64,000 nucleotides of DNA from Minisyncoccota bacterium (GCA_035548815.1 DASZSF010000004.1:57261-121260); one strand, 5' to 3'. Shown: positions 3,717-48,869, numbered from the stretch's first letter. Program-made: numbers and translations. The notes: generated from the letters alone by a model not told the origin.

Positions 3717-3751
3717 TCTGCCATCTCAGATGTATCTAAAACTAATTTATG

Positions 3752-14626: not shown

Positions 14627-14634
14627 ACGCGATA

Positions 14635-16570
<1,936 letters not shown>

Positions 16571-17473: not shown

Positions 17474-17476
17474 ACC

Positions 17477-19336
17477 ATGCTTTCTCTTTCCTCATGGGCG
17501 ACTGCCGGAGGTGTTCTAGCACTGCTGCAGGCAGTGCTATTGCCTGGACTTATTGTGGTACGCCTGCTGCGCATTGAGCTACCACTATCATTGCGCCTTG
17601 CGGCAATTCTGGCGCTTAGCCTCATGGCAAACTATACGACTATTTTCCTCTTGGCCTGGTTCGGGCTCTATACCGCACCAGCAGTTCTTTGGAGCATGGT
17701 GGCAGAATGCGCGGCCTTGCTCTTTCTATATCGTGATGTAGCCCGAACAGCGTTAACCGTTTCGCTTGAACAAGCACAGGATGCGGTCATAGGGTCATAC
17801 GAACAGCGTTGCGCGCCCGTGCGCGCATGGCTCGAAGACACACGCAGAGGCACGCCGGAAGGATTTTTGCTGCGGCTGACGCTCGTATTAGGGGCCGCCA
17901 CGGTAGCATATCTTTCCTACCTTTTGATTTCCAACGTGGGGACGCTATTCAATCTATGGGACCCTATCATTTCATGGAACCGGTGGGCCCTCGAATGGAG
18001 CGCCAACGGGCTCCCGCGCGACACATGGGAGTATCCACAGCTCATCCCCGCCGCGTGGTCGCTTGCATACGTGCTGGCCGGGAGCGGGGGAGAATATTTC
18101 GCCAAGGCGATAATGCCGCTCTTTCCGCTTCTGACTGTACTCGTGATGCTTGGAGGCGGCATACGCATGCGTTCGCCCAGCTATCTGCTTGGCGGCCCCA
18201 TGTTCGTGCTCCTCATGCGGGTGCTGTCGGGCAGCGCCATCATGGCGACCGAAGGATACGTCGACATGGCGGTCACGTTTTTTTCCTTCTGTGCCATCGC
18301 TACCTTGCTTTTTATACGCCCATCGACGCCGGACAGGCAGGCAGCACAGTTCCTCCTGCTGGGCGCGCTCTTTGCCATAGGCGCGGCGATGACCAAGCAG
18401 GCCGGATTGTATATCGTGGTCCTGTACCCCATTCTCTCGGCGCTCATACCCCTACGTGAACACGCGCCCCTGCGAGCGCAATGGCTACGGCAGTTTCTCA
18501 TATACGCACTAGCAGCACTCGCACTTCTAGGCCCTTTCTATATATATAAGGAGGTAGCGATACACACGCAAGGTGATATTTCAGTATTGCCGTCCATCCA
18601 CAATCAAATCTATGGCAGCGGCAAAAGCATGTTTGAAGTTGCTGGAGCAGGCCTCTGGTATTTGGTTACGAAGACCTACGGGCTTGCGGCTTTATACGCC
18701 GTTTTATGCCTGTTCGCATGGCGGGACAGACGCGTGCGCGCCCTGGCGCTTCTTGTCATCGTGCCGTATACGTTGTTCTGGAGCTTCGTGCTAAGCTACG
18801 ACAGCAGGAACATATCGCTGGTGGTGCCGCTTGTAGCGCTCGTAGCTGCAGTGGGCGTAGAACGGCTCATCGAGCGCAGGCGCGTCGCACAATGGCTCAT
18901 GTGCCTTCCTGCTCTGTGGGCCGCGGGAGCGGCGCTCGCGTGCATGCTGGCACTCACGCCTTTTGTGTCCCACAAGATTGCCTCCGCGTACGCGCACGAT
19001 TCGCGGCAGATATACGATACGGAGCTCAGCGTGCTGTTGAGCAACTACTTCGAACATCATCCCGAAGGCTCCATCTACACAAACTTTCCCATACTCTACT
19101 TTATGCCCGCGACAAAAGACCGCATCTGGAGCCCGTTTGGAGGCTATTCGACGAAAACATACGACTTTGACGCCTATGCGGCCAACGCAAACAACCCCGC
19201 CTTTACCTACCTGCTGAGCGCAGACTACACGCCGGCTGGAATCCGCGCTGACATCGAAGCAAAGATCCGCTCGGGCGTGTATGAAGAGGCGCTGCGCTCA
19301 GGGGGGTACTTGCTGGTCAAACGCGCCCGTAATTAG
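17477..19336 (+). CDS. Large polytopic membrane protein of unknown function, inserted between wzm and wzt; possible GT-C-fold glycosyltransferase using a polyprenyl-phosphate-sugar donor (inference from context)
   Basis: 619 aa, more than 10 predicted TM helices plus a C-terminal soluble region; no recognisable motif beyond its position next to the GT2+GtrA gene. Confidence 0.45.
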   Translation: MLSLSSWATAGGVLALLQAVLLPGLIVVRLLRIELPLSLRLAAILALSLMANYTTIFLLAWFGLYTAPAVLWSMVAECAALLFLYRDVARTALTVSLEQAQDAVIGSYEQRCAPVRAWLEDTRRGTPEGFLLRLTLVLGAATVAYLSYLLISNVGTLFNLWDPIISWNRWALEWSANGLPRDTWEYPQLIPAAWSLAYVLAGSGGEYFAKAIMPLFPLLTVLVMLGGGIRMRSPSYLLGGPMFVLLMRVLSGSAIMATEGYVDMAVTFFSFCAIATLLFIRPSTPDRQAAQFLLLGALFAIGAAMTKQAGLYIVVLYPILSALIPLREHAPLRAQWLRQFLIYALAALALLGPFYIYKEVAIHTQGDISVLPSIHNQIYGSGKSMFEVAGAGLWYLVTKTYGLAALYAVLCLFAWRDRRVRALALLVIVPYTLFWSFVLSYDSRNISLVVPLVALVAAVGVERLIERRRVAQWLMCLPALWAAGAALACMLALTPFVSHKIASAYAHDSRQIYDTELSVLLSNYFEHHPEGSIYTNFPILYFMPATKDRIWSPFGGYSTKTYDFDAYAANANNPAFTYLLSADYTPAGIRADIEAKIRSGVYEEALRSGGYLLVKRARN

Positions 19337-19338
19337 GT

Positions 19339-20370
19339 ATGAAAAAAGCCGTCATAATTCCTGCATACGAGCCGGGCGAACACTTCGCTCCGTTCATCCG
19401 CGAACTTGCCGAAGGGCCGTACGAACGCATCGTTATCGTGGACGACGGCAGCAGTGCGCCCGCGCAGCGGTTCTTTGACGAGGTGCGCGGCACGCCGCGC
19501 ACCGTGGTGCTTGCGCACGAGGTCAACCGCGGCAAGGGGGCGGCGCTCAAGACCGCCTTCGGCTACATCCGCGCATCAGAGCCCGACATAGAGCACGTGG
19601 TTACCGCGGATGCGGACGGACAGCACGCGCCTGAAGACATTCTGCGCACGGCGCAGAAACTGGAGACAGAGCCGGGTGCGCTGGTGCTCGGCACACGCAC
19701 GTTCGAAGGCGAGGTGCCGTGGCGAAGCCGGTTCGGCAACACGCTTACGCGCGGGCTTTTTAAGGCATTGTTCGGCATCGCGATTTCCGACACACAGACC
19801 GGCTTGCGGGCGCTCCCTGCTTCGGCGCTTTCTCACTTCATTGCCATCCCCTACAACCGCTACGAATTCGAGTCGGAAATGCTCTTGGTGGCATCACGCG
19901 CCACAATGCCGATACGCGAAGTCCCCATACGCACCATCTACGAGGACGGCAACGCATCTTCCCATTTCAACCCGCTCATAGACTCGTTCAAGATCTACTT
20001 CGTGCTACTGCGCTACACGCTCGCTTCGCTCGCGTCTGCGCTGATAGATTTTGTTGTCTTTTTGCTTATCTATCCGCTTGTTGCCAACGTGCTGGTTGCC
20101 ATATATACCGCACGGGCTGTTTCCCTCTTTGCCAACTACGGTCTTAATAGCAATGCCGTATTCCATGACAGAGCTTCCATATGGCGAACGTTCCCTAAAT
20201 ACCTGCTTTTGGTTATCATCTCTGGTTTTGTTGCGGCAGGGCTTATCATCGCAGGACATTTGTATATAGGACTCCCTATAGCGTTGGCAAAAATCCTAGC
20301 AGAATCTATGCTGTATGTGGTGAATTTCTTTGTGCAGAAAAAATTCATTTTTACTGCGCACAGATCATAG
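19339..20370 (+). CDS. GT2 glycosyltransferase fused to a C-terminal GtrA-like membrane domain (polyprenyl-phosphate sugar synthase, DPM1/ArnC/GtrB-like)
   Basis: 343 aa; VIIPAYEPGEHF...IVIVDDGSS...DADGQH GT2 core, followed by a 4-TM GtrA-like tail. Confidence 0.8.
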   Translation: MKKAVIIPAYEPGEHFAPFIRELAEGPYERIVIVDDGSSAPAQRFFDEVRGTPRTVVLAHEVNRGKGAALKTAFGYIRASEPDIEHVVTADADGQHAPEDILRTAQKLETEPGALVLGTRTFEGEVPWRSRFGNTLTRGLFKALFGIAISDTQTGLRALPASALSHFIAIPYNRYEFESEMLLVASRATMPIREVPIRTIYEDGNASSHFNPLIDSFKIYFVLLRYTLASLASALIDFVVFLLIYPLVANVLVAIYTARAVSLFANYGLNSNAVFHDRASIWRTFPKYLLLVIISGFVAAGLIIAGHLYIGLPIALAKILAESMLYVVNFFVQKKFIFTAHRS

Positions 20371-20374
20371 TTAT

Positions 20375-21646
20375 ATGGAAACACCCATCATCAGCATAAA
20401 AAAAATCGGCAAGCGCTACACGCTCACGCACCAGCAGGGCGGCTATGTCGCCTTGCGCGATGTCATCGCAAATATCGCCCGACGCCCGTTCGCGTTCCTC
20501 AAACACAAAGCGAAGAATGCGGTGGGCCTTGCGCATAGGGAAGAATTCTGGGCGCTGCGCGACGTCAATTTCGAAGTCCACAAAGGCGAGGTTATCGGCA
20601 TCATCGGCAGCAATGGCGCGGGCAAGTCGACACTGCTTAAGATACTGTCGCGCATTACCGCGCCTACCGAAGGTGAAATAGTGCTCCGCGGCAGGGTCGG
20701 AAGCCTGCTTGAAGTAGGGACCGGCTTCCACCCCGAACTTACGGGGCGGGAAAATATCTTTCTCAACGGCGCAATACTGGGCATGACACGCCAGGAAATC
20801 GCCCGAAAGTTCGACGAAATAGTCGCGTTCGCCGGCATTGAACAGTTCCTCGACACGCCGGTAAAGCGCTATTCGAGCGGCATGTACGTGCGGCTCGCCT
20901 TTTCTGTTGCCGCCCACATGGAGCCCGACATCCTCATTGTGGACGAGGTGCTTGCGGTGGGCGACGCGGAGTTCCAGAAAAAATGCCTGGGCAAGATGGA
21001 AGAAGTCACTCAAAAAGAAGGCCGCACGATAATTTTCGTGAGCCACAATCTGGAGGCCATTGCATCGCTATGCAACCGGTGCGTGCTGTTGCAAAAAGGC
21101 ACCGTGGCCCGCGTAGGCCCTTCACAGGAAGTAATCGACTATTATTTGAGCAATAGCCGGAGCCTCAATGCGACTACTGAATACGCCGCAAAAAAGAACA
21201 TCGCGGCGCAGATACGTACAGTGAGAGTATTGCACGGAGATTCCCCTTCTTCCCACATACCTATTCATGCGGGGGTCACAGTGGAAGTAGATTTCGAAGT
21301 CTATGAACCACTGCCCAAAGCGACTATCGCGCCGAGCATATTCCACAACGGGATAGAGCTTATCCACTCCTACGAAAGCGACAGCACGGGGAGGCTCACG
21401 AACTACGCGCCGGGACGCTACACCACAAAGATCACGATTCCGCCTTTCGTACTTAACGTCGGGCATTTCAGCGCCGCCGTTGCCATTGACCAGCCCGGGT
21501 TCGCAGTGATCGACAAAGTAAAAGAAATTGATTTTCAGATCACCGATGGAGAAAATCCAAAAACATCCATCATGAAGGACAACACCGCCGGTCCCGTGGG
21601 AGTATTGCTTGAGTATGAAACTACGCATACTGCCGCGCACGAATAA
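20375..21646 (+). CDS. wzt: Polysaccharide ABC exporter ATP-binding protein (Wzt/TagH-like) with ~190-aa C-terminal extension (putative carbohydrate-binding/chain-terminus-recognition domain)
   Basis: Walker A GSNGAGKST, signature YSSGM, Walker B ILIVDE; start taken at ATG 20375 (METPIISIKK); the track's 20330 start is an upstream alternative. Confidence 0.9.
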   Translation: METPIISIKKIGKRYTLTHQQGGYVALRDVIANIARRPFAFLKHKAKNAVGLAHREEFWALRDVNFEVHKGEVIGIIGSNGAGKSTLLKILSRITAPTEGEIVLRGRVGSLLEVGTGFHPELTGRENIFLNGAILGMTRQEIARKFDEIVAFAGIEQFLDTPVKRYSSGMYVRLAFSVAAHMEPDILIVDEVLAVGDAEFQKKCLGKMEEVTQKEGRTIIFVSHNLEAIASLCNRCVLLQKGTVARVGPSQEVIDYYLSNSRSLNATTEYAAKKNIAAQIRTVRVLHGDSPSSHIPIHAGVTVEVDFEVYEPLPKATIAPSIFHNGIELIHSYESDSTGRLTNYAPGRYTTKITIPPFVLNVGHFSAAVAIDQPGFAVIDKVKEIDFQITDGENPKTSIMKDNTAGPVGVLLEYETTHTAAHE

Positions 21647-21660
21647 CCTGTAGAGCCTGT

Positions 21661-22743
21661 ATGAGAAAAATATTTGTTCAGCAGTCAAGCCCCGTATTCG
21701 CGCACAATAAAATATTCGAAACGCTCGACCTCAACCGGCTCAACGCGGGCTGGATAGAGATGAAGAAACAGTTCGCGGAGCTCGGATACGACCTCATGAG
21801 CGCCGACGACCACAGCCTTTCTGACTGCGAGGGAATCATATTTTTCAACGCCGATAGCCTCGTCTTTCCTATGCCGCTCTCCAAGAGGCTTTCGCGCCGC
21901 CTGTACAAACTGCTTGGCAGAAACGTGGCGACTCCTTACCCTTCTCGCCCGCTCTACGACGAGGCGCTGGCCGCAGGGCTCCGCGAAAGAATGGTGCTCG
22001 TGCTGTGGGAGCCCAGGACCGTGCTGGCGTCTAACTTTGATCCGAAGATATGGAAGATGTTCGACCACATACTGACCTGGGATGACGATCTCATCGGAAC
22101 CCCGCCCTTTGAGCGGTTTGTTATTCCTATGGAAGGCAATGACGTGCGCGCGGAACCGATGCCGTTTGAAGAGAAAAAGCTGCTCGTGAATATTTCCATA
22201 AACAAATATTCTTCGTACAAGAACGAGCGGTACTCTGCCCGCCGAACAACAAGCGCGTACTTTGACAAACACTATCCCCGTGACTTCGACCTCTATGGGC
22301 TCCGGTGGAACAAGCCCGTGACCTTCCTGCAAAAACTATTTCCCTTCCTCGTACAGCACTACTCGACATACCGCGGCCATGCGGGCAACAAACTGGACAT
22401 ACTCGCCCGGTACAAATTCAACCTGTGCTACGAAAACACGTCCGATGCGAAAGGGTACGTGTGCGACAAAATATTTACCTCGTTCCATGCCCGTTCCGTG
22501 CCGGTCTACTGGGGCGCTTCCAACATAGAGGAATATATTGACCCTGACGCCTTCGTTGACAGGCGGGCGTTCGCATCCGACCGCGAACTAGCCGAATTCC
22601 TGGTGAGCGTGACGAAGGAGCGTTACCAACAGTACCTCGACGCGGCAGAGCGCTATATGCAGAGCGAAAAATATGCTACATTCCTTCCTAAGAATTTCGC
22701 ACGGGCATTTATACGGACCCTTAAGCTAGAACCCACACAATGA
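21661..22743 (+). CDS. GT10-family alpha-1,3(/4)-fucosyltransferase
   Basis: 360 aa; YKFNLCYENTSDAKGYVCDKIFTSFHARSVPVYWG matches the GT10 core (H. pylori FutA YKFSLCFENS...YVTEKI...IPIYWG). Confidence 0.85.
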   Translation: MRKIFVQQSSPVFAHNKIFETLDLNRLNAGWIEMKKQFAELGYDLMSADDHSLSDCEGIIFFNADSLVFPMPLSKRLSRRLYKLLGRNVATPYPSRPLYDEALAAGLRERMVLVLWEPRTVLASNFDPKIWKMFDHILTWDDDLIGTPPFERFVIPMEGNDVRAEPMPFEEKKLLVNISINKYSSYKNERYSARRTTSAYFDKHYPRDFDLYGLRWNKPVTFLQKLFPFLVQHYSTYRGHAGNKLDILARYKFNLCYENTSDAKGYVCDKIFTSFHARSVPVYWGASNIEEYIDPDAFVDRRAFASDRELAEFLVSVTKERYQQYLDAAERYMQSEKYATFLPKNFARAFIRTLKLEPTQ

Positions 22744-23591
22744 AACGCACGACGGCACCGAACAAAAAAACTCCCAAGACCTTGCGCAACCTCGTCATCG
22801 GGTCAGAAGGATTCCTCGGCAGCACGTTGTGCAGTTTTTTGGAAGGCAAAGGCGAGTCCGTAACGCGTTTTGACATCAAACGGTCCAAAAAAGAAGATGC
22901 TCGCACGGCGAACTTGCACCTGGAAAAATTCGACCGGGTATATTTTCTTGCGTGGGAGGTAGGAGGCTCCAAGTACCTCTACCGCCACGACACCCAGCTC
23001 CAGCAGCTCAACTGGAACATCGACCTGCTGCAAAATGTCATGAAGCAGTTGCAGAAGCACGAGACACCCTTCGTATTTGTCTCAAGCCAGCTCGCCGACG
23101 AGACCGACACCATTTACGGCGCGCTCAAAAAGGTCGGCGAACTGTGGACCGCGCAGATAGACGGTGCATGCGTCCGCTTGTGGAATATCTATGGGTCGCA
23201 GGAAACGCTCGACGAAAAAAGCCACGTCATAAGCGACTTCGTGCACCAGGCCGTGTATAAAAAGACCATTGCCATGATGACGACGGGCGAAGAGCGGCGG
23301 CAGTTCACGCATGTGCTCGACGTATGCGAAGCGCTGCACCTCATCTTGGAGCAGAAGCTCCATGGCGCTGTCTACGACCTGACTACGTTTGAATGGATAA
23401 CGATACGCGAAGTAGCCGACATCATTGCCTTCCATGCCAGCGCGCGCGTGGTGCCAGGCACAATGCGGGGTGTGGACCGGGCATACGCTACTATCAAAGG
23501 CCGCCCGCCCGGATGGGCGCCGCGCATACGACTCGAAGAGGGACTGAAAGGTCTGATAGAAAATATCAGACAAAAAAAGCGCATATCATGA
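22740..23591 (+). CDS. NAD-dependent epimerase/dehydratase family protein (short SDR)
   Basis: 283 aa; VIGSEGFLGSTL Rossmann; start overlaps the upstream stop (ATGA). Confidence 0.75.
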   Translation: MKRTTAPNKKTPKTLRNLVIGSEGFLGSTLCSFLEGKGESVTRFDIKRSKKEDARTANLHLEKFDRVYFLAWEVGGSKYLYRHDTQLQQLNWNIDLLQNVMKQLQKHETPFVFVSSQLADETDTIYGALKKVGELWTAQIDGACVRLWNIYGSQETLDEKSHVISDFVHQAVYKKTIAMMTTGEERRQFTHVLDVCEALHLILEQKLHGAVYDLTTFEWITIREVADIIAFHASARVVPGTMRGVDRAYATIKGRPPGWAPRIRLEEGLKGLIENIRQKKRIS

Positions 23592-25600
23592 CGCTACAAA
23601 GGCAGCGACGTATCCCAAACATACTTCTCATCGGCGCAGGCCGATTTGGAGAAATACATTTGCAAAAGTTACTAGCCCTTCAAAAAGAAGGCCTGCTCTC
23701 TTTGCTTGGCGTTGTGGTCGCTTCATCTGCTACCCGCGACAGGATACAAAAAACATACGGCGTGCAGGTGTGGACTGAACTGAGCGACGCAGTGCTCGCG
23801 CACACAGATGCGGTCGACATTGTGACTCCTCCGGAAACACATGCGGAACTTGCCCTGCGATGTCTGCAATATGCTGATGTATTGATCGAAAAACCGCTTG
23901 CAACGAACCTTGCGGATGCCCGAGCCATGGAAGCATGCGCGAAAAAATACAAACGTGTCCTTATGGTCGGATATATCTTCCGATTTGACCCGATGCTCAT
24001 AAAGCTCAAAAAATTACTCTCCCCTTTCCCGCGAGGGAACGTACACATACGCGGAGAATTTATCAACCCTCGCACGCACGATGACGGGCGGGACCCGGTG
24101 CTTGAAATGTCTCATCCCCTCGACAGTATTCGCTTCGTCAGCAGGCTTGGCGCTCCAACTCTCGTTACGCATGTCCCACATGCCCGCACCTCGACGCTTG
24201 AGATACAGTACGCGCCTACGATACATGCCACAGTGAACATGGGTTGGGAGGGCGAGGCCAAGCGGCGGACTCTCACCTACACGTTCGACACCAAAGAGAT
24301 CCATGCCGACTTTATGGGAAGAACAATTGAGATCAAAGATCGATTCAAAAATATCACAAAAAACATCCGGATTCCGCACACTGCTAATGATCCTCTAACA
24401 GAAGAGATCGTGCGGTTTCTTGACGTGATACGAGGTAAAAAAGTTTCCTATCCTACCGCCGCAGACGGTGTCGGTATACTCGAACTCAAGGAACAAGCAG
24501 TACCGACATCTTCAAACAAAAAACGTCCTCGCGTTGCCATCATTGGAGCCGGCATATTCGGCACGAACTGCGCTATTGAGCTGGCGAAATTCTGCGATGT
24601 CGTACTTATAGAAAGGAATGAGGACATCTTGCAGGAGGCCTCATTCGTCAACCAGTACCGCCACCATTGGGGATACCACTATCCGCGCAGCAGTGAGACG
24701 GTGCGCGATATTGCGGTTGCGCTTCCCACATTTGAGACCAGGTACGAAAAAGCTATCATACGCAACTTTCCTACATACTATGCGATTGCGAAATCAGGCT
24801 CTCGTGTAACTCCCCGAGAGTACCTTGATTTTTGTCGAGCACATGGGCTCGCATTCACGAAAGAATTCCCAGACCCTGAGTTCCTCAATAGAAACAAAGT
24901 ATCGCTTTCTTTAAAGACCCTTGAGCCGATATATAATTACGACATACTAGTAGACATAACCAAAAAGCTCTTAGGCCGGAATTCTATCGAGATACGACTC
25001 TCGACCGCAGTACAAGGCGGCCGGATCAAAAAAAATGGTGCTAAGGAACTCTCGTTAAAAAGCAGGAAGGGGGTCTATAAAGAACCTTTTGATTATGTGA
25101 TCAATGCAACCTATGCTCAATACAACCAGCTGGCTCACTGGTTCAACTTCCCGATCAAGCCAATACGTATCGATCTGGTGGAAGCCCTTATCGTACAGTT
25201 GCCGCTGCCCCGAATCTCGCTTGCAGTGATGGACGGTCCGTTTACCAATCTTGTACCAACCTCCACAGACGGCTTGTTTACTCTCGTACACATCCGCGAG
25301 TCGATATTGGAACGGTACGTACCCCGTACAGGGCTTCCTAATGTCAGCAGAAAGATACGGAAACGGAATGTGGCTCAAACTCTCAAAAAGAGCCGCGCGT
25401 GGTTTCCCATTCTGTCTCACGCTACCATACAGGAGGTCCGCTATACCCTACGGGCGGTCAACGCAGGACGCGAGAGGGACGATGGACGCCCGTCGGATGT
25501 TTCATACCATGGCTTTGGGATATGGTCGGTATTAGGAGGCAAAATAATCAACTCCGTTATTGCTGCACAGGAGATAGCGAACCAGATACGCAAGGATTGA
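23588..25600 (+). CDS. Two-domain oxidoreductase fusion: N-terminal Gfo/Idh/MocA NAD(P)-dependent oxidoreductase + C-terminal FAD-dependent oxidoreductase
   Basis: ILLIGAGRFGEIHLQKL...VDIVTPPETHAE...LIEKPLA (Gfo/Idh/MocA), then RVAIIGAGIFGTNCAIELAK... (FAD/NAD GxGxxG); start at ATG 23588 overlapping the upstream stop; the track's longer ORF begins inside the upstream gene. Confidence 0.7.
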   Translation: MTLQRQRRIPNILLIGAGRFGEIHLQKLLALQKEGLLSLLGVVVASSATRDRIQKTYGVQVWTELSDAVLAHTDAVDIVTPPETHAELALRCLQYADVLIEKPLATNLADARAMEACAKKYKRVLMVGYIFRFDPMLIKLKKLLSPFPRGNVHIRGEFINPRTHDDGRDPVLEMSHPLDSIRFVSRLGAPTLVTHVPHARTSTLEIQYAPTIHATVNMGWEGEAKRRTLTYTFDTKEIHADFMGRTIEIKDRFKNITKNIRIPHTANDPLTEEIVRFLDVIRGKKVSYPTAADGVGILELKEQAVPTSSNKKRPRVAIIGAGIFGTNCAIELAKFCDVVLIERNEDILQEASFVNQYRHHWGYHYPRSSETVRDIAVALPTFETRYEKAIIRNFPTYYAIAKSGSRVTPREYLDFCRAHGLAFTKEFPDPEFLNRNKVSLSLKTLEPIYNYDILVDITKKLLGRNSIEIRLSTAVQGGRIKKNGAKELSLKSRKGVYKEPFDYVINATYAQYNQLAHWFNFPIKPIRIDLVEALIVQLPLPRISLAVMDGPFTNLVPTSTDGLFTLVHIRESILERYVPRTGLPNVSRKIRKRNVAQTLKKSRAWFPILSHATIQEVRYTLRAVNAGRERDDGRPSDVSYHGFGIWSVLGGKIINSVIAAQEIANQIRKD

Positions 25601-25602
25601 AC

Positions 25603-26463
25603 ATGCAGAAATTTCAGCTCACTACTCCAATATTGCTCGTAGGGTTTACTCGTTTCGAAACGGCTCAAAATGTGTTCGATGAGATACGAAAGGCAAAACC
25701 TCGGCAATTTTTCCTGGCAGTAGACGGGCCGCGCGAGGGACGACTGGATGATATAGAACGTTGTAATAAAACTAAGCAAATCGCTGCACAGGTGGATTGG
25801 GAATGCGAGGTGCACACCCTCTTTCAGGAAAAGAACCTCGGTTGTGGCGTAGGCACGACGCGCGCGATTAATTGGATGTTCGAGCACGTAGAAGAAGGCA
25901 TCATTTTCGATGATGACTGCGTACCAGACCAGTCATTCTTCCGGTTTTGCCAAGAACTGCTGGAATACTACAAGGATGACCCCAGCGTGATGCACATTAG
26001 CGGCGACAACTTCCAAATGGGCAGGAAACGCGGCAATGCATCATATTATTTCTCGCGCTATACGCATAACTGGGGGTGGGCAACATGGAGGCGCGCGTGG
26101 AAGCACAATGATTTCGAAATGCTTCCTCCAGAATTACGCCGCCACATTTGGGACAAGCAGTGGCTCAAGTCAGTCGAGCGCATGGGGGGGTTGGCAATTT
26201 TGCCCAATGTAAACTTGATAACCAATATCGGTGATGGGCCGGGTGCCACGCACACAGAGGGTGACAGCCCCTTCCTTCGGCTTCCGGTCGCGCCTATGCC
26301 CTTTCCGCTGGTACACCCGGCACGCATCCAGAGGAACGCGCGCGCCGATTGGTACACCTACCGCACCATGTTCGGTGGCACGCTGTATGCATACCTGCTG
26401 CAGAAATTCCTGCGCACCATACCCGTGGGGGTGAAAACGAAAATTAAGAGTGTTGTAAGATAA
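25603..26463 (+). CDS. Putative nucleotide-diphospho-sugar glycosyltransferase (HlpA-like), function uncertain
   Basis: 286 aa; IIFDDDCVP (DxD-like), NWGWATWRRAW; start at ATG 25603. Confidence 0.4.
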   Translation: MQKFQLTTPILLVGFTRFETAQNVFDEIRKAKPRQFFLAVDGPREGRLDDIERCNKTKQIAAQVDWECEVHTLFQEKNLGCGVGTTRAINWMFEHVEEGIIFDDDCVPDQSFFRFCQELLEYYKDDPSVMHISGDNFQMGRKRGNASYYFSRYTHNWGWATWRRAWKHNDFEMLPPELRRHIWDKQWLKSVERMGGLAILPNVNLITNIGDGPGATHTEGDSPFLRLPVAPMPFPLVHPARIQRNARADWYTYRTMFGGTLYAYLLQKFLRTIPVGVKTKIKSVVR

Positions 26464-26467
26464 GGCA

Positions 26468-27391
26468 GTGCCAATCCAAAGCCCTATCACAGGTTCGGAC
26501 AATACGACGCTGGAACGCGAGATTCCTTCGCGCGAGATCATAGACGCGTACCAGAAAGAGCTCGGCATGGATGTTTCCCATTTTTTTGCGGGCATAGAAG
26601 CAGTGAGCGTCTATACATGCAGGGACACAGGCTACCGCTTTTACCACCCGCTTACCCTAGCGGGCGACGACGCGTTCTACCAGGAGGTCGAAAAGTTCCC
26701 CTGGTACTACATGGACTGGAAGTGGGAGCATGGCGTCGCGGACGGGTTGATACAAAAAGATGAGTCGGTGTTGGAGATTGGGTGCGCTCGGGGCAGCTTC
26801 CTTAAAAAACTGCGGGAGCGCGGCGTGCATGTTGAAGGGCTCGAGATGAACACCAAGGCGCTTGAGGAATGCCGCGCTGCCGGGCTTACTGTTCATCCCG
26901 ACTCTATAGAGGGGTTTTCTGCGAGTAAGAAGGGCATGTACGATGTCGTGTGCTCGTTCCAGGTGCTCGAGCATGTGCCGCATGTGCGCGAGTACCTTGA
27001 AGCATCGCTCGCGGTACTCAAGCCAGGCGGGCGCATGATAGTGAGCGTCCCCAACAACGATAGCCTCGTACTCTCTTCAGGCGGCCCTGATACCCTTAAC
27101 GCCCCGCCTCACCACATGGGGCTATGGGACCCCAATTCCCTTATCGCGCTCCAGAGATATTTCAATATGACTATTGAAGGTTTGTATCTGGAGCCTCTGC
27201 AGGAATACCACGCTGGATTCGCGAGCAAGATTGCCAGCGCCGCTATAGGAACAAAAGTAGCGGACAAGCTACCGCTCCCCCACGGCCTCGTAGCCAAGCT
27301 TGCCGGCCGCTTCGGCTACACCGCCGCCTCCGCCCTTGCCCCCCATATCGTTGGTCACAGTATGATTGCAGTATTTACAAAGAATGGATGA
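26468..27391 (+). CDS. Class I SAM-dependent methyltransferase
   Basis: 307 aa; VLEIGCARGSFLKKL motif I, FQVLEHVPH, LKPGGRMIVSVPN. Confidence 0.7.
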   Translation: MPIQSPITGSDNTTLEREIPSREIIDAYQKELGMDVSHFFAGIEAVSVYTCRDTGYRFYHPLTLAGDDAFYQEVEKFPWYYMDWKWEHGVADGLIQKDESVLEIGCARGSFLKKLRERGVHVEGLEMNTKALEECRAAGLTVHPDSIEGFSASKKGMYDVVCSFQVLEHVPHVREYLEASLAVLKPGGRMIVSVPNNDSLVLSSGGPDTLNAPPHHMGLWDPNSLIALQRYFNMTIEGLYLEPLQEYHAGFASKIASAAIGTKVADKLPLPHGLVAKLAGRFGYTAASALAPHIVGHSMIAVFTKNG

Positions 27392-29021
27392 CACGCGACA
27401 CATAAGTTTCGTCATACCCGCATACAACTGCGCAGATACGCTCGCAGAGGCTGTCGAGTCTATCTACAACGGCAATTTCGAAGACGGCGACGAGGTGATA
27501 GTGATCGATGACGCCTCGACCGACACTACACCAAAAGTCATTGAAGGACTGCGCATAGCTCACCCAGATCTTATGGTTCTCACTAATGAGCAAAACAAAG
27601 GCTGCCCCGCGACACGTAATGTTGGCATACATGCCGCACGCAACGGACTTATTTTTAACCTTGATGCCGACAATATACTCGCGCCCGGCAGCGTAGCAAA
27701 GCTTAAAACTGTTCTCACAGAAAAGAATGCCGACGTTGCTGCATTTAGCGAATACCATTACTTCAAAGGCAGTGATAAAAAAGTCACTCACAAATGGATC
27801 TACCCATACGACACGCTCACGCTCGCCGACCTTCTTGCAAGCCATATTAACCCCGGGCCCGGCGGCAACTTCCTCTATACCAAAGCAAGCTGGGAGAAGG
27901 TCGGCGGGTATTGGGAATATGGCAAAGGCTTGCACGAAGCATGGGGCTTTACTTTGAAACAGCTGGCTCACGGAGCGCGCATGGTCGTGCCTCCTCATTC
28001 GTACTATCTGCATCGCTATGGCGTCAATTCCTTATTTGACAGAGAATCGAAGGAACTGGAGAGAAGTTCACTCACGGCAACAAAGATGCTGGAGCCGTTC
28101 CTTGATCTTCTTGATACAGACGACGCTGCATACATACGAAGTGAAGAAGGATCACGAACATGGTTCGAGACCCTTCCCGTGCGACCCATACGCCTTGCAT
28201 CCCACACGCCAGGGAGGACTGGGTACAAAACGTCCCGCACATCCCGTATGCCGGGTTACACCATAGCGCGCAACATACTGCGGCGCGCAATGCCTCGCTC
28301 TCTTGTCCACTGGCTACGCGCACAGCGGCTGATGCGAGCGTACAGGAAGGACTTTTCGACGTTCAAGACACTCTCACAGGCACAGGGGCGCGGCGAGCCG
28401 CTGTGGGACGATCGCCGTCCGGAATTGTTCGACAATACCTCAACCACACCGTTTGACGCTCACTACATATATCACCCGGCCTGGGCTGCGCGTGTGCTGC
28501 ACAGGACCAACCCCTCCCTTCATATTGATATTTCTTCGACGCTGACTTTTTCCTCCATACTTTCCGCTTTTATACCCGTGCGGTTTTACGACTATCGCCC
28601 CGCGCCACTCAAGCTTTCCAATTTTGAATCACTACATGCGGACCTCACAGCACTGCCATTTCAAGACGGGAGCATTGCATCGCTTTCGTGCATGCACACC
28701 ATCGAACATATCGGGCTTGGCCGGTACGGCGACCCTCTGGACCCAAACGGAGACCGCACAGCAATAGCCGAGCTTATACGCGTACTCGCGCCAGGAGGCA
28801 ACCTTTTGTTTGTAACGCCCGTAGGAAAGCCGCGCGTACGCTTTAATGCTCATCGGATCTACTCATACCGGCAGATCATGGAATACTTTAACGGCCTGGA
28901 ACTAGTCGAATTTTCTCTCCTTCCGGACGACATCAGCCAGGGCATTGTAGAGAATGCGAGCCAGGCACAGAGCGACGCGCAAAACTACGGATGCGGTTGC
29001 TTTTGGTTTAGAAAGCGGTAA
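27384..29021 (+). CDS. Bifunctional GT2 glycosyltransferase (N-term) - SAM-dependent methyltransferase (C-term) fusion
   Basis: ISFVIPAYNCADTL...VIVIDDASTD (GT2); C-term ...LPFQDGSIASLSCMHTIEHIG...LAPGGNLLFVTP (Methyltransf_11-like); start at ATG 27384 overlapping the upstream gene by 8 nt. Confidence 0.75.
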   Translation: MDDTRHISFVIPAYNCADTLAEAVESIYNGNFEDGDEVIVIDDASTDTTPKVIEGLRIAHPDLMVLTNEQNKGCPATRNVGIHAARNGLIFNLDADNILAPGSVAKLKTVLTEKNADVAAFSEYHYFKGSDKKVTHKWIYPYDTLTLADLLASHINPGPGGNFLYTKASWEKVGGYWEYGKGLHEAWGFTLKQLAHGARMVVPPHSYYLHRYGVNSLFDRESKELERSSLTATKMLEPFLDLLDTDDAAYIRSEEGSRTWFETLPVRPIRLASHTPGRTGYKTSRTSRMPGYTIARNILRRAMPRSLVHWLRAQRLMRAYRKDFSTFKTLSQAQGRGEPLWDDRRPELFDNTSTTPFDAHYIYHPAWAARVLHRTNPSLHIDISSTLTFSSILSAFIPVRFYDYRPAPLKLSNFESLHADLTALPFQDGSIASLSCMHTIEHIGLGRYGDPLDPNGDRTAIAELIRVLAPGGNLLFVTPVGKPRVRFNAHRIYSYRQIMEYFNGLELVEFSLLPDDISQGIVENASQAQSDAQNYGCGCFWFRKR

Positions 29022-29033
29022 ACACCCACAAGA

Positions 29034-29831
29034 ATGATCACTACTAAACTACAAGGCGGGCTCGGGAACCAGCTGTTTCAGTACGCAGCTGGGCGCGCAT
29101 TAAGCGAGCGGCATAACACGGACCTTGTGCTCGACATCGAGTTTTACGGACGGCAGGAATTGCGGGCATATACGCTCGGCAAGTTCAGCATTTCTGCGCG
29201 CATAGCGTCACACAAAGAACCTGCGCGCGCCGACCGCCTTGTCGAAAAGGGATTCTCGTTCGATTCACGAGTGCCAGAGGCTGGCCCTGATACGTATCTG
29301 GAGGGCTACTGGCAAAGCGAGCGGTATTTCAAAGATATAGAATCTGTTATTCGCAGGGAGTTCGCGCTCAAAGATCCCGGCAACGGCGCGTTCAAGGAAG
29401 CGTTAGCCGAGTTGGGGCACGGGAATTCTGCCGTATCGCTTCACGTTCGCAGAACCGACTATCTCGCCCCCAAGCACCAGGGCATATACGCCCAGCTGAC
29501 TCCAGCATATTACCTGAACGCGCTGCAGATAATCGCAGAAAAAAATAAGGACCTCCGCGTCATCATATTTTCGGACGATGTGGCATGGGTGAAAGAAAAC
29601 CTGACCCTCCCTTTTCCAACACTCTACATGTCGGGGCGCGGATTTGTCGACTATGAGGAGCTTGTGCTCATGAGCGCATGCGCGCACCACATAACCGCGA
29701 ACAGCTCATTTTCCTGGTGGGGCGCATGGCTCAACCCACGCCGCGAAAAAATAGTGGTCACGCCAGAGCACTGGTTCGTGGACGGACGCGATGAGAGCGA
29801 CCTCATACCCCCATCATGGATACGACTCTAG
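29034..29831 (+). CDS. GT11-family alpha-1,2-fucosyltransferase
   Basis: 265 aa; GGLGNQLFQYAAG, SLHVRRTDY, ANSSFSWWGAWL, PEHWFV match H. pylori FutC motifs (GGLGNQMFQYAFA, FVHIRRGDY, ANSTYSWWAAYL, PKHWLF). Confidence 0.9.
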   Translation: MITTKLQGGLGNQLFQYAAGRALSERHNTDLVLDIEFYGRQELRAYTLGKFSISARIASHKEPARADRLVEKGFSFDSRVPEAGPDTYLEGYWQSERYFKDIESVIRREFALKDPGNGAFKEALAELGHGNSAVSLHVRRTDYLAPKHQGIYAQLTPAYYLNALQIIAEKNKDLRVIIFSDDVAWVKENLTLPFPTLYMSGRGFVDYEELVLMSACAHHITANSSFSWWGAWLNPRREKIVVTPEHWFVDGRDESDLIPPSWIRL

Positions 29832-30835
29832 CCCCCCCTCGCGTGACCGTACTTATGCCCGTGTACAATGGTGCGCGGTATCTGCGTGATGCCATGGACA
29901 GCATTCTAGCCCAGACCTATGCGGACTTCGAATTCCTGATAGTGGACGACGGCTCGACCGACGAAAGCGTGGAAATAATACGATCCTATACTGATCCTCG
30001 GATCCGACTGGAGCGAAACGGAATGAATCGAGGCCTGGTATACAGCTTGAACCGAGGCATCAGCCTGGCCCGGGGCGGATATGTGGCTCGCATGGACTGC
30101 GACGACATAAGCCTTCCGCAGAGGCTGGCCGAACAGGTGGCATATTTGGACAAACACCGGGACATCGCGGTATGCGGCACGTGGGTCAAGACGCTCGGAG
30201 AGAGAGCTGCTGCCTACGAATATTTCTTGGACCCGGAGGATATCAAAGCTTCGCTCCTATTCACTACGTCCCTCGCCCACCCTACTGTCATGCTCAGAAA
30301 GTCTTTGCTCAAGGAAGCGGGGCTCGAATACGACCCGGCGCATGCTCATGCGGAAGACTACGGGCTATGGGTATCTTTGGTCCATGCCGGATACAAGCTC
30401 GCGAACCTTCCTCTCGTGTCTCTTCTCTACAGGCGGCATGTGGCAAGCGTAAGCGCCGCTCATAGCAAAGCGCAAAAAGAAACAGCGTCCGGCATACGAA
30501 ATGCGCAGCTCGCTTGGCTCGGGATCGATGCGAGCGCGGAACATATGGAAATCCATAACGGCATCAAAGGCGGAGAAAACTTCGTGCGGGATGCGGAAGC
30601 ATGGCTTACTACGATTCTAAATGCCAACAAAACATCGCGCGTATACAGCCAGCTTTCGCTTGGGCGCGTGGTATACCGGCGCTGGCGGACCATCTGCGGA
30701 GCGAATGCGGGCAGCGGGCTTATGACATGGCGCATGTTCATACGCTCTCCTCTTTCTCATCTTGCAGGCAGGCGTGAACGATACCTCGACAGCGCGAAGT
30801 TTTTTATTAAAGGGCTGCTAGCGCGGCCAGGATAG
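29816..30835 (+). CDS. GT2 family glycosyltransferase
   Basis: 339 aa; VTVLMPVYNGARYL...FLIVDDGSTD...DCDD. Confidence 0.85.
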   Translation: MDTTLAPPRVTVLMPVYNGARYLRDAMDSILAQTYADFEFLIVDDGSTDESVEIIRSYTDPRIRLERNGMNRGLVYSLNRGISLARGGYVARMDCDDISLPQRLAEQVAYLDKHRDIAVCGTWVKTLGERAAAYEYFLDPEDIKASLLFTTSLAHPTVMLRKSLLKEAGLEYDPAHAHAEDYGLWVSLVHAGYKLANLPLVSLLYRRHVASVSAAHSKAQKETASGIRNAQLAWLGIDASAEHMEIHNGIKGGENFVRDAEAWLTTILNANKTSRVYSQLSLGRVVYRRWRTICGANAGSGLMTWRMFIRSPLSHLAGRRERYLDSAKFFIKGLLARPG

Positions 30836-31913
30836 TCTTGGCCCGCGCGTCCCAGGTAGAAGCCTCGGCTTTCGAGCGCGCCGCGTGCGCGAGCGCCTCG
30901 GCATGCGCGCGCTCTTTACGCACACGCTCGATAGCATGCGCGAGCGCTCTCGCGTCGTCGGGCACGAACGCGGTTGCGCAGTCCTGCAGCACCTCGCGCA
31001 TGACGGGCAGATCAGAATAGATGATCGGCTTCCCGCTCGCCATATATTCGTATGCCTTCATGGGGAAGCCGTAGTCGCGGAAATGCGGCTGGTCGGGGTA
31101 CGGAATCGCGAGCGCATCCACAGCCTGCTCGTAGGCAGGAACATGCTCTGTGGGCACGAGAGGCACAAATATGCACCGGTCTTCCACGCCCTCTTTCTCT
31201 GCATACGCGCGATACTCCTCTATCTCCCCCGCCCGCCCGCCTACGAACACCATCTTCATCGTTCGATCATCGCTATGGCGCAGGGCTTTGATCATGACTT
31301 CGAGCCCTTTGCTCATGCCAAGGGTCTTGTAGAGGCCCACGTACCCGACCAAAAAGCCCTCCGGAAGCCCCAATTCCTGCCGCAGTGCAGTTGTATTTTT
31401 TGACGCACTATAGGGGGCAAGGTCCACCCCTCCGTAGGCTACGACGACGCGTCCAGCATCGACGCCGGTTGCGGCGACAAGCTGGTTCTTGAGATGGCGC
31501 GTCGTCGCAACCAAGCAGTCGCTTCCCTCTGCCACCGCCCTGTCGCGCCAGTCGCCAAAAAGCATATGCCAATCCGACGCGATGCGGAACGACGCGCCCA
31601 GCACCCGCCGCCAAAACATAAGGAGCACGAGGAGGTTGGGGTCGTTCGCAAAGTACACCGTGTCCTTGCCCGCCCCGTATGTGCGTATGAGGCCGGGCAG
31701 CTTAAAGAAGTACTGTAGTCGCACGCCACGCCGCACGCGCAGATGTACGTTTTCGTGAGGAATACCGGCAAGCGCGTTTTCCGCAGCCTCCGCCACCACA
31801 AGCGTAAAGGCGCCCGGCAGCAAACGAGCGAACGCGTCCGCCATTTTCTCGACAAAAAAATGGTCAGCGGTGGAAGCCGGATATGTCTTTGCCGTCACAT
31901 AGACGAGCTTCAT
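30807..31913 (-). CDS. GT4 family glycosyltransferase
   Basis: 368 aa; C-terminal Glycos_transf_1 region ...FPMKAYEYMASGKPII... Confidence 0.85.
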   Translation of the reverse strand: MKLVYVTAKTYPASTADHFFVEKMADAFARLLPGAFTLVVAEAAENALAGIPHENVHLRVRRGVRLQYFFKLPGLIRTYGAGKDTVYFANDPNLLVLLMFWRRVLGASFRIASDWHMLFGDWRDRAVAEGSDCLVATTRHLKNQLVAATGVDAGRVVVAYGGVDLAPYSASKNTTALRQELGLPEGFLVGYVGLYKTLGMSKGLEVMIKALRHSDDRTMKMVFVGGRAGEIEEYRAYAEKEGVEDRCIFVPLVPTEHVPAYEQAVDALAIPYPDQPHFRDYGFPMKAYEYMASGKPIIYSDLPVMREVLQDCATAFVPDDARALAHAIERVRKERAHAEALAHAARSKAEASTWDARAKTILAALAAL

Positions 31914-32093
31914 GGTTGGACTATAATAGCACGGTGATTGAAAAATTTAAAAAGCTTGTGCATGCCCCACGTCTCCTGTGCAACAGATTTGGATATTGCG
32001 TGCGCCGGTATCGGATGCCGCAATCGAGCGTATCCTCAAATAGGACAGTACTGTGACCGTATTCACGAATATTCATTTCCTTAGGAAAGGAAT

Positions 32094-32939
32094 TTATCGT
32101 TCAGGCCGAGCAACATACGTATCATATCGCCCAATGAACGAAGCGAAGTTTTCGCGCGTGCATTCTTCCCCTCCTAATGTAAAAAGACTGTACTTATGCT
32201 GTTGGAGCCAAACAAGAATATCATCACGCGTATGCGGGTACACCACAAGATTCTTTGGCTCTATTTCCAAAAACAAAACGGGGCGGACGTTCTCTAAGAA
32301 TTCCGTAGCGCCTTCAAGTATCCACAACTCCGACCCTTCGGTGTCGAGCTTCATCACATCAACACGTGGCTTGCCGGCACGCTTCCACCACAGGTCAAAC
32401 GTGATCATTTGGACATCGACGGGAATAGGTTCGCCTGCCCTGCCGGTATCGAAAAATCCGTCGCCTGAAGAATCCGGCGAGAAATGGGTTATGAATTGAA
32501 CCATCCCTTCTTTATTGCCAAGCGCCTGCGGAGAGAGCGTGATTCTGTGCGACAATGCATTCTTCTGTATCGTCATAGCAAAATACCGATGTTGTTGAGG
32601 TCCTGGTTCGAACGCATATATGCACGTGCCTGGTGCATGTGAAGCGACATACAAGCTTATGAGGCCAATATTCGCCCCGACATCAAGAAAGACAGCGCCT
32701 GACGGAGGAAGTTCGGAGGTAATGGCCTTGCACATTTTCTCTTCAAAAATCCGGGACGGCCGGATTTTTTTGATAAGGATATCGCCCGCCCCGTACCACA
32801 AATCATACCCGCAATACGGAATATGACAGAGCGCGGAACCGCCGTTCATAATCCTGTCTTTAACAATAGCCTGGTAGTGCCGCAGAAAGTTCCACACACG
32901 CTTCGGAGTCATCTTTTTTACTGATGATTTTAACGTCAT
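32094..32939 (-). CDS. FkbM-family methyltransferase
   Basis: 281 aa; FLDVGANIG...YAFEP...MKLDTEGSE are Methyltransf_21 hallmarks. Confidence 0.85.
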   Translation of the reverse strand: MTLKSSVKKMTPKRVWNFLRHYQAIVKDRIMNGGSALCHIPYCGYDLWYGAGDILIKKIRPSRIFEEKMCKAITSELPPSGAVFLDVGANIGLISLYVASHAPGTCIYAFEPGPQQHRYFAMTIQKNALSHRITLSPQALGNKEGMVQFITHFSPDSSGDGFFDTGRAGEPIPVDVQMITFDLWWKRAGKPRVDVMKLDTEGSELWILEGATEFLENVRPVLFLEIEPKNLVVYPHTRDDILVWLQQHKYSLFTLGGEECTRENFASFIGRYDTYVARPER

Positions 32940-33580
32940 ACGCGGGCGACTGTCGCGGTCACTATATAGCCTAGCGCATAATCGCTCCTTTGGTAACGCT
33001 TGGATGAGGCCCTACTTAATGCAGCAAAAGACATATCGAGCAGCCGGACGACGTGACGGCTGATCGTGTAATTGAAGTACCGCAATGGAATCGGCAGCAG
33101 ACGATCTATCATAAGGAGCCGAGCAGCAAATACACCGCTTCCCAGTGCCTCTACTTTTATCTCTGTGCAGCCGACAAGCGTAAGTTCTCGTTCAAGCGCC
33201 GTAGCGCTGAATCTATGGAAATCCTGGGGCGAGGGGTGATACGGGAATAGAAACGGGACGAGAATGGTAAGAGTCCCTCCAGGACGAACCACCCTACACG
33301 CCTCCTTCAAAAAAGCATGGTACCCAAATATGTGTTCGAGCACATTCATCAAAAGCGCGTGGTCATACGAAGCATCATTCAAAGGCAAAGGAAGCTCAAG
33401 GTCATGAAGAAGGTCTGGGCACGCTTGTTTGCTCACGTTAACAGTATAGAAGGTGTGGTCTCCCCCCAAAAGCCTCTGATAATGCGAACCTCTCTCCCCA
33501 CCCAAATCAAGCACCGACCCATTTAGCACTTGTTCCGAAAGAATTCGCTCTTCCTCAATCCTAAGCAGTGAAGGAATCAT
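32936..33580 (-). CDS. Class I SAM-dependent methyltransferase
   Basis: 214 aa; VLDLGGERGSHY, LLMNVLEHI, VRPGGTLTILVP. Confidence 0.7.
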   Translation of the reverse strand: MIPSLLRIEEERILSEQVLNGSVLDLGGERGSHYQRLLGGDHTFYTVNVSKQACPDLLHDLELPLPLNDASYDHALLMNVLEHIFGYHAFLKEACRVVRPGGTLTILVPFLFPYHPSPQDFHRFSATALERELTLVGCTEIKVEALGSGVFAARLLMIDRLLPIPLRYFNYTISRHVVRLLDMSFAALSRASSKRYQRSDYALGYIVTATVARV

Positions 33581-35684: not shown

Positions 35685-35688
35685 GTTT

Positions 35689-37646: not shown

Positions 37647-37664
37647 GAATAAATCGTATCGCCT

Positions 37665-48797: not shown

Positions 48798-48869
48798 AGC
48801 TCCCGTTCAACGACTTCGTCAACGCGCCATCACACGGCGCGTTTTCTTTTTGGGAAAAATTATATTGAG

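Follow-up and report, generated by a model that had tools for sequence, protein, structure and literature searches.

Two homologues of fucosyltransferases are encoded in a 64-kb stretch of DNA (the window; 64,000 nucleotides) from a Minisyncoccota bacterium (GCA_035548815.1, DASZSF010000004.1:57261-121260), one belonging to glycosyltransferase (GT) family 11 (GT11) and the other, referred to as GT10-like, to family 10 (GT10). Both genes lie within a glycan locus spanning ~12.3-38.8 kb of the window, and this locus quite likely specifies an ATP-binding cassette (ABC)-transporter-dependent pathway for a fucose-containing, O-methylated surface glycan that houses real GT10- and GT11-family enzymes. 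The two family assignments are already public in NCBI ('glycosyltransferase family 10' and 'alpha-1,2-fucosyltransferase'), where both proteins are on record from a Candidatus Paceibacterota metagenome-assembled genome (MAG). A first-pass annotation of this DNA was therefore right in assuming an ultra-small bacterium of the Candidate Phyla Radiation (CPR). It had also proposed that the two enzymes serve Lewis- or H-antigen mimicry, an interpretation that is an over-reach (see below). The surface chemistry of CPR/Patescibacteria is little known, yet their episymbiotic lifestyle depends on cell-cell contact. A literature search for fucosyltransferases in CPR/Patescibacteria gave no relevant paper, and the same was found for Parachlamydia. 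The locus puts forward a specific, conserved set of genes through which a probable fucose-containing, methylated glycan of Paceibacterota and related lineages can be tested.

The open reading frames (ORFs) of both transferases, with the peptide strings that had been quoted for them, were confirmed. Profile searches, which the first-pass annotation had itself named as the analysis able to refute its family calls, placed the two genes in GT10 (PF00852) and GT11 (PF01531). The GT11 protein contains GGLGNQLFQYAAG, HVRRTDY, ANSSFSWWGAWL and PEHWFV and matches PF01531 (Glyco_transf_11) with E=2.1e-27 and 96.6 bits, against a cutoff of 23.9. BLASTP comparison with Helicobacter pylori FutC (WP_080473865.1, verified as an alpha-1,2-fucosyltransferase of this species by exact-sequence look-up) showed 29% identity over residues 3-265 (E=5e-40). 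The motifs GGLGNQxFQYA, HxRRxD, NSxxSWWxAxL and PxHW all align in register between the two proteins, so the earlier wording of an "almost motif-for-motif" likeness was fair. The HxRRxD motif reads H137-V-R139-R140-T-D142; H137 and R139 are invariant in 46 homologues, in which R140 and D142 are at least 90% conserved. It was reported that the first Arg of this motif is critical in WbsJ (PMC4202792). A phmmer search against PDB chains gave no match at E<=1; no GT11 relative is therefore detectable there by sequence, and a fold search was used instead. The nearest folds found by Foldseek with an AlphaFold2 model (predicted local distance difference test, pLDDT, 95.2) were FUT8, NodZ, POFUT1/2 and AtFUT1, all GDP-fucose-dependent enzymes of the alpha2/alpha6/O-fucosyltransferase superfamily. 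GT11 also includes the alpha1,3-fucosyltransferase HhFT2, and its characterised members differ in acceptor (PMC4202792), so that family membership fixes neither linkage nor acceptor. The 3' end of the GT11 gene is overlapped by a GT2 gene, a conserved partner: adjacent GT11-GT2 pairs were found in 9 other loci.

The GT10-like protein contains the strings YKFNLCYENT, YVCDKI and VPVYWG, and its sole Pfam match is PF00852 (Glyco_transf_10; E=5.2e-14, 52.7 bits, gathering score 23.9 bits). In a phmmer search of the PDB its residues 240-327 matched residues 221-306 of 2NZW, the alpha1,3-fucosyltransferase of H. pylori (HpFucT; E=1.4e-12), followed by Arabidopsis FUT11, mango FT13 and human FUT9. 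A profile of the GT10-like family scored 95 bits (E=4e-26) against 2NZW, with the motif region alone aligned. The AlphaFold2 model (44 homologues in the alignment) reached a pLDDT of 96.4 and a predicted template modelling score (pTM) of 0.92. Its best Foldseek matches in the PDB were HpFucT (2NZX), FUT9 and mango FT13, and then generic GT-B enzymes; as modelled, the protein keeps the GT-B fold. NCBIfam holds no model matching either the GT10-like or the GT11 protein.

The similarity to HpFucT is confined to one half of the protein. When hhalign was run against proteins that combine the Hp-type N-domain PF18025 with PF00852, residues 147-355 alone aligned (probability 99%, E=8e-18). Residues 1-146 correspond to the acceptor-binding domain of GT-B enzymes, and in the GT10-like protein this domain shows no similarity to the Hp-type profile or to the Pfam models of GT10 N-terminal domains; likewise, no Pfam model, PF18025 (FucT_N) and PF17039 included, gave a match on residues 1-237. 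Two approaches to carrying the GT10 alignment on into the N-domain, a search of the PDB with the family profile and hhalign, both ended at the C-terminal domain, and a MAFFT pairing of the Hp 'TGEND' with 'TWDDD' was judged unreliable and not used. The FutA-type match that had been claimed for this gene thus stands for the C-terminal donor-binding domain and fails for the N-terminal acceptor domain. The type of N-domain sets GT10 subfamilies apart, not family membership, and a GT10 subfamily with a new acceptor domain could supply fucosyltransferases of new specificities.

Most residues of the GT10 donor site have a counterpart in the GT10-like protein. R194 corresponds to Hp R195 (hhalign) and the pair E258-N259 to Hp E239-N240, all invariant in 41 homologues, and Y266 and K270 correspond to Hp Y246 and K250 (phmmer alignment). 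E117 is kept in 112 of 113 aligned homologues; in the model it sits just past strand 4 of the N-domain, the expected place of Hp Glu95, and may be the counterpart of this catalytic base (Glu137 in FUT9). The complete family-invariant set (E117, Y191, R194, E258, N259, P281, Y283 and G285) is retained. Within 'YVCDKI', D269 replaces Hp E249, with the carboxylate kept. Hp Glu249 is thought to stabilise an oxocarbenium-like transition state, and its mutants are 'virtually inactive' (PMC4202792). The activity or the donor of the GT10-like protein may therefore differ. At the extreme, the protein would be catalytically dead or non-enzymatic after loss of the Glu, leaving GT11 as the sole fucosylating enzyme, and the inactivity of the Hp mutants speaks for this. 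However, loss of function was rejected as the leading view and is extremely improbable, because the Asp is fixed in a clade of 23 members that has diverged to ~50% identity and all other family-invariant residues are intact. In addition, the gene itself is intact and part of an operon, and the GT-B model of its product is very confident.

The triad at Hp T248-E249-K250 was tallied over 116 GT10-like homologues of at least 300 amino acids (aa), giving TEK 78, SEK 9, LEK 3, TER 1, ADR 15, CDK 8 and SQR 2. In a neighbour-joining tree the 23 Asp variants (CDK/ADR) group together to the exclusion of all others, with the Glu-variant CPR proteins as their sister group. In all six Asp-variant loci with flanking DNA (the window, L004, L084, L085, L086 and L089) the same short gene of the short-chain dehydrogenase/reductase (SDR) type lies directly downstream, encoding proteins of 273-288 aa that are 59-72% identical and carry GSEGFLG and YGALK motifs. 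Among the 43 Glu-variant loci where an ORF follows in the same direction, just 2 have any SDR at that place, and this SDR is of another type. The short SDR family counts 599 matches and is not restricted to GT10 loci: a Rhizobiales manC-fcl-gmd-wzm-wzt cluster lacking GT10 has a member. Among solved and named proteins no close relative was found (best PDB E=1.8e-7), and there is no specific similarity to solved Rmd; the window SDR is a candidate nucleotide-sugar 4-reductase or epimerase.

These data raise the question whether the GT10-like protein and the translationally coupled SDR form a cassette that makes and transfers a GDP-6-deoxyhexose other than fucose, e.g. D-rhamnose or 6-deoxy-D-talose. 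The SDR would then act on the Gmd product GDP-4-keto-6-deoxy-D-mannose or on GDP-fucose, and GDP-L-fucose would serve GT11 only. The replacement of [TS]-E-K by C-D-K or A-D-R in one exclusive clade, the strict association of this clade with the short SDR, and the presence of the SDR family in a gmd/wzm/wzt cluster lacking GT10 all fit such a cassette. Rhizobium tropici furthermore provides a precedent for GDP-fucose and GDP-6-deoxy-talose pathways within one Wzm/Wzt cluster (PMC12595478). On the other hand, an exchange of Glu for Asp is conservative, the SDR is without a close characterised relative, and the Asp-SDR association rests on a single clade and may therefore reflect one evolutionary event. 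The two SQR loci, considered as independent support for a link between variant residue and SDR, were dropped because their downstream neighbour is an Fcl-like gene, not the short SDR. GT10 enzymes are also not known to accept donors besides GDP-fucose. A non-fucose cassette is thus regarded as unlikely, although if true it would represent the first non-fucose donor specificity in GT10. Somewhat less likely still is the wider proposal that the CPR-specific Asp-variant GT10 and its SDR use a non-fucose GDP-6-deoxyhexose in a methylated, Wzm/Wzt-exported glycan that mediates recognition between these episymbiotic cells and their partners. The preferred reading remains that the GT10-like protein is a putative GDP-6-deoxyhexose transferase, probably with L-fucose as donor sugar.

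Supply of this donor is encoded in the same cluster. As had been noted in the first-pass annotation, genes for GDP-fucose synthesis accompany the transferases: gmd and fcl are located 5 kb upstream of the GT10-like gene and 12.5 kb upstream of the GT11 gene. The fcl product aligns full length with solved GDP-L-fucose synthases (8DU0, E=3e-65; E. coli 1BWS, E=8e-60) and scores 288 bits with NF047922, under the equivalog cutoff of 500. The genes gmd and fcl, followed by a gene encoding a Wzy_C + TPR protein, run divergently from wzm. From wzm onward, 12 genes on the plus strand (16655-30835) are spaced by -26 to +14 bp, in the order wzm, membrane protein, GT2-GtrA, wzt, GT10-like, SDR, oxidoreductase fusion, 286-aa protein, methyltransferase, GT2-DUF268 fusion, GT11 and GT2. 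The GC content of the glycan locus, 0.53, is that of the window. The best NCBIfam matches of Wzt are ATPases for export of teichoic acid and galactan. Its C-terminal extension, which had no sequence match in the PDB, is a probable carbohydrate-binding module; weak Wzt_C matches are also on record for Wzt orthologues. Four proteins of the cluster contain methyltransferase domains, among which the GT2 fusion and an FkbM/RfbT-like enzyme.

This gene arrangement is conserved. A scan with one genome per species gave 591 relatives of the GT10-like protein. Most full-length relatives belong to CPR (Paceibacterota, Zambryskii-, Taylor-, Vogel-, Nomura- and Falkowbacteria, among others) and were recovered from groundwater, Lac Pavin, Lake Baikal and sediments. 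In Chlamydiota, Dependentiae, Verrucomicrobiota, Omnitrophota and a Woesearchaeote the relatives match chiefly over residues ~108-355. Analysis by tblastn placed wzt upstream of the GT10-like gene, and in the same direction, in 21 loci; it directly adjoins this gene in the window, L004, L008, L016, L024 and L086. Overall, wzm-wzt-GT10 is repeated in ~20 further CPR loci of groundwater, lake and sediment origin. Within 10 kb of the GT10-like gene, fcl was found by tblastn in 32/83 loci and gmd in 20/83. The L004 locus, with a GT10 protein 59% identical to that of the window, repeats the order wzm, membrane protein, GT2-GtrA, wzt, GT10, SDR, GT11, GT2, and in L086 the same Wzy_C + TPR protein is encoded beside wzm/wzt/GT10. 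The recurring synteny of gmd/fcl, wzm, wzt and the GT10-like gene, with GT11-GT2 and methyltransferase genes in addition, argues for a recurrent CPR glycan module and not for chance juxtaposition. In the loci of relatives that match over residues ~108-355 only (L034-L083; common in environmental Chlamydiota, Dependentiae, Verrucomicrobiota and Omnitrophota, with one in a Woesearchaeote) the gene usually lies apart from wzm/wzt and gmd/fcl. Many lineages with such relatives are symbionts, but the way in which the search sampled genomes may have produced this apparent enrichment.

Taken together, these genes suggest the following pathway. GDP-L-fucose would be made by Gmd and Fcl, and a lipid-linked glycan would be extended on the cytoplasmic face of the membrane by the GT2, GT4, GT11 and GT10-like enzymes. 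GT11 would act paired with its conserved GT2 neighbour, and it and the GT10-like enzyme would both add a 6-deoxyhexose, most probably L-fucose. Several S-adenosylmethionine (SAM)-dependent methyltransferases, one of them fused to GT2, would O-methylate sugars, and a probable methyl cap would be placed at the non-reducing end. The finished chain would be exported by Wzm/Wzt, the cap being recognised by the C-terminal module of Wzt, on the pattern of the cap-recognising pathways for E. coli O8/O9a and the Geobacillus S-layer glycan. The GT2-GtrA enzyme may, together with the 619-aa membrane protein, add a side residue outside the membrane; from its position, the latter may itself be an extracytoplasmic glycosyltransferase of GT-C type working with the GT2-GtrA enzyme. 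Finally, the Wzy_C/TPR protein would ligate the glycan to a surface acceptor, which could be a protein (such as an S-layer protein or pilin) or a lipid. The data establish the family memberships, the operon structure and the synteny of wzm, wzt and GT10 across CPR; donors and acceptors of the transferases, the methyl cap, the target of ligation and any part in partner recognition are inferred.

Several points weigh against this pathway. All characterised GT10 enzymes carry Glu at the position where the GT10-like protein has Asp, and function is a prediction for every member of its subfamily. The C-terminal 163 aa of Wzt match Wzt_C with E=1.8e-4 and 21.9 bits, below the Pfam cutoff of 30.4. 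A GDP-mannose pyrophosphorylase (ManC homologue) was not found within the window. The candidate initiating transferase of the cluster, a Bac_transf enzyme, is encoded 20 kb away, its link to the cluster being assumed.

It had been suggested that GT10 and GT11, supplied with GDP-fucose, assemble terminal structures of Lewis x/y or H type, by which the bacterium would mimic a host or interact with it. Indeed, GT10 and GT11 are the families used by H. pylori for its Lewis antigens, the GT11 protein follows HpFutC motif for motif, and the GDP-fucose pathway is present. Moreover, the organism belongs to CPR, of which the cultivated members are episymbionts that recognise their partners via glycans; in cultivated Saccharibacteria, pilus lectins of the symbiont read the rhamnose-rich wall polysaccharide of the host (bioRxiv 10.1101/2024.11.25.624915). 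However, the GT10-like protein has an N-domain that shows no sequence relationship to that of the Hp-type fucosyltransferases acting on N-acetyllactosamine (LacNAc), and GT11 includes other linkages and acceptors (PMC4202792). The neighbouring genes imply export of a polymer with heavy methylation, as in bacterial O-antigen-like or S-layer glycans. The relatives stem from MAGs of groundwater, lakes and sediments, with no Lewis-bearing host in view. Among the Pfam matches of ~25 cluster proteins (GT2, GT4, GT10, GT11, methyltransferases) no LacNAc-forming GT25/GT7-type enzyme was found, although GT2 enzymes could in principle substitute for these. The partners of CPR are prokaryotes, and Lewis antigens are not known from these. 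The fut genes of H. pylori owe their phase variation to poly-C tracts and heptad repeats, whereas here the GT10-like gene has no homopolymer of at least 7 and the GT11 gene only an A7 run. The GT10-like protein lacks heptad repeats and a C-terminal amphipathic tail and ends right after the catalytic domain. Lewis or H epitopes are consequently considered very unlikely; on these data the glycan cannot be called a Lewis or H antigen, and the locus, which gives no evidence of Lewis mimicry, ought not to go by that name. The surface glycan of the proposed fucose-containing pathway might nevertheless take part in partner recognition: in view of the Saccharibacteria a recognition role for a CPR surface glycan is conceivable, though the Saccharibacteria work does not itself attest to such a role.

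Table 1 Genes of the glycan locus, other features of the window and corresponding gene groups in related loci
Feature	Position	Strand	Evidence and remarks
Wzy_C (O-antigen-ligase/O-oligosaccharyltransferase type) + TPR protein	12317-14671	-	784 aa; PF04932 60.3 bits, TPR families
fcl, GDP-L-fucose synthase	14635-15600	-	full-length match to solved GDP-L-fucose synthases
gmd, GDP-mannose 4,6-dehydratase	15566-16570	-	TIGR01472 520.8 bits (equivalog cutoff 415); PF16363 462.8 bits
wzm, ABC-2 permease, first operon gene	16655-17473	+	PF01061; 62-73% identical orthologues upstream of GT10 in CPR loci
Polytopic membrane protein	17477-19336	+	619 aa; sole match weak DUF2142; orthologue at same position in L004
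GT2 + GtrA polyprenyl-phosphate glycosyltransferase	19339-20370	+	PF00535 + PF04138; arrangement shared by L004, L085
wzt, ABC ATPase	20375-21646	+	PF00005; 423-aa product on record; C-terminal extension ~150 aa
GT10-like glycosyltransferase, Asp-variant clade	21661-22743	+	360 aa; PF00852, GT10 structures
Short SDR	22740-23591	+	283 aa; PF01370; GSEGFLG + YGALK motifs; 4-bp overlap with GT10 stop codon
GFO/IDH/MocA + FAD-oxidoreductase fusion, putative sugar oxidoreductase	23588-25600	+	670 aa; PF01408 + PF01266
Conserved 286-aa protein	25603-26463	+	opens recurrent three-gene module
Class I SAM methyltransferase	26468-27391	+	307 aa; PF13489, PF08241
GT2 + DUF268-type methyltransferase fusion	27366-29021	+	551 aa; PF00535 + PF03269 + PF08241
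GT11 fucosyltransferase homologue	29034-29831	+	265 aa; PF01531, HpFutC alignment
GT2, overlaps GT11 stop	29816-30835	+	339 aa; PF00535, 119 bits
Convergent block, six GT4 genes and two methyltransferases	30807-38777	-	Pfam
GT4 genes of this block	30807-31913, 33577-34644, 34641-35684, 35689-36573, 36570-37646, 37665-38777	-	Pfam
FkbM methyltransferase	32094-32939	-	Pfam; weak RfbT match
Class I methyltransferase	32936-33580	-	Pfam
PKD-domain protein	38800-40176		
TrwB/TraG-like type IV coupling ATPase	40163-42061		
tRNA-Leu	48869-48952		
tRNA-Ile	49907-49982		
16S rRNA	50193-51654	-	
Second small glycan locus	57507-61002		
SDR of second locus	57507-58583		
Bac_transf (WbaP/PglC-type) phosphoglycosyl transferase	58593-59966	-	PF02397, 169 bits
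GT4 of second locus	60034-61002		divergent
FtsW/RodA gene	62061-63218		adjoins second glycan locus
GT10 + SDR pair, window	21661-23591		
GT10 + SDR pair, L004	10001-11882		
GT10 + SDR pair, L084	3143-5079		
GT10 + SDR pair, L085	6074-8026		
GT10 + SDR pair, L086	10001-11931		
GT10 + SDR pair, L089	1611-3545		
Three-gene module, window	25603-29021		
Three-gene module, L009	13947-~17400		
Three-gene module, L013	11824-~15200		
Three-gene module, L084	6991-10427		
Three-gene module, L086	13574-16963		

Within the operon, a module of three genes recurs in several CPR loci (Table 1), encoding a ~290-aa protein, a ~305-aa class I methyltransferase and a ~545-aa GT2-DUF268 methyltransferase fusion. 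The first of these, the 286-aa protein of the window, had no significant Pfam, NCBIfam or PDB match; its orthologues adjoin the two following module genes in L009 and L013, whereas those of L084 and L086 are recognised by their position. The module may represent a capping or elongation unit, with the GT2-DUF268 fusion as candidate elongating or capping enzyme. The fusion of a GFO/IDH/MocA NAD-binding domain with a DAO-type FAD oxidoreductase is unusual for sugar modification. Its best NCBIfam match is UDP-GlcNAc 3-dehydrogenase (98 bits, below cutoff), and a 52% identical copy is present in L009. A G7 run was observed at 26184 and a C7 run at 29832-29838, where the GT2 gene overlapping the stop of GT11 has its 5' end. 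The C7 run is the only C run of at least 7 in the cluster and is too short to be called a phase-variation tract.

The Bac_transf gene belongs to a second small glycan locus, between an SDR gene and a divergent GT4 gene and with an FtsW/RodA gene adjoining. Glycan synthesis by the main cluster may be initiated from this second locus. A PKD-domain protein and a TrwB/TraG-like type IV coupling ATPase are encoded directly adjoining the main cluster. Further on, the 16S rRNA gene is followed by genes for tRNA-Ile and tRNA-Leu. An Rfam search of the whole window detected no 23S rRNA, and the rRNA genes therefore appear to be unlinked. The start of the window shows a sharp step in GC content, from 0.63 in bases 1-2000 to 0.43 in bases 2001-4000 and ~0.52 elsewhere; the ORFs in bases 1-4000 gave no Pfam match.

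Compared with known systems, the GT10-like protein shares PF00852, the GT-B fold and donor-site residues with H. pylori FucT/FutA (GT10; PDB 2NZW/2NZX/2NZY) and human FUT9. It differs from the H. pylori enzyme in that only the region ~147-355 can be aligned and in the Asp at the position of Hp E249. Furthermore, its gene is free of heptad repeats, amphipathic tail and poly-C and is part of a wzm/wzt operon instead of standing alone. The nearest described counterparts of the GT11 protein are the GT11 alpha1,2-fucosyltransferases FutC of H. pylori and WbsJ, WbwK and WbiQ of E. coli, and, as in E. coli O-antigen clusters, its gene is found in a surface-polysaccharide cluster with gmd/fcl. It is shorter than FutC (265 versus 300 aa) and has an overlapping, conserved GT2 partner.

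The S-layer glycan (slg) clusters of the Gram-positive Geobacillus stearothermophilus NRS 2004/3a and Paenibacillus alvei encode Wzm/Wzt, a WbaP-type initiator and a Wzy_C(+TPR) O-oligosaccharyltransferase, and WsaE of Geobacillus is a fusion of glycosyltransferase and methyltransferase that makes a 2-O-methyl cap (PMC2943079). Wzm/Wzt, a WbaP-type enzyme, Wzy_C with TPR, a glycosyltransferase/methyltransferase fusion and 6-deoxyhexose chemistry are all shared with the locus described here, where the genes suggest a counterpart of the O-methyl cap. The slg clusters, however, use dTDP-L-rhamnose and are without GT10/GT11, whereas the present locus would use GDP-L-fucose and has no identified S-layer gene beside it. 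In Rhizobium tropici CIAT 899 an O-polysaccharide (OPS) operon comprises gmd, fcl, tld, wzm, wzt and the Wrt glycosyltransferases; its hydrophobic polysaccharide contains L-fucose and 6-deoxy-talose, the latter via the extra SDR Tld (PMC12595478). The fucosyltransferase WrtF has a GT-A fold, belonging to neither GT10 nor GT11, and acts in a Gram-negative lipopolysaccharide system. What the two systems would have in common is an ABC-transporter-dependent glycan built from Gmd-derived 6-deoxyhexoses.

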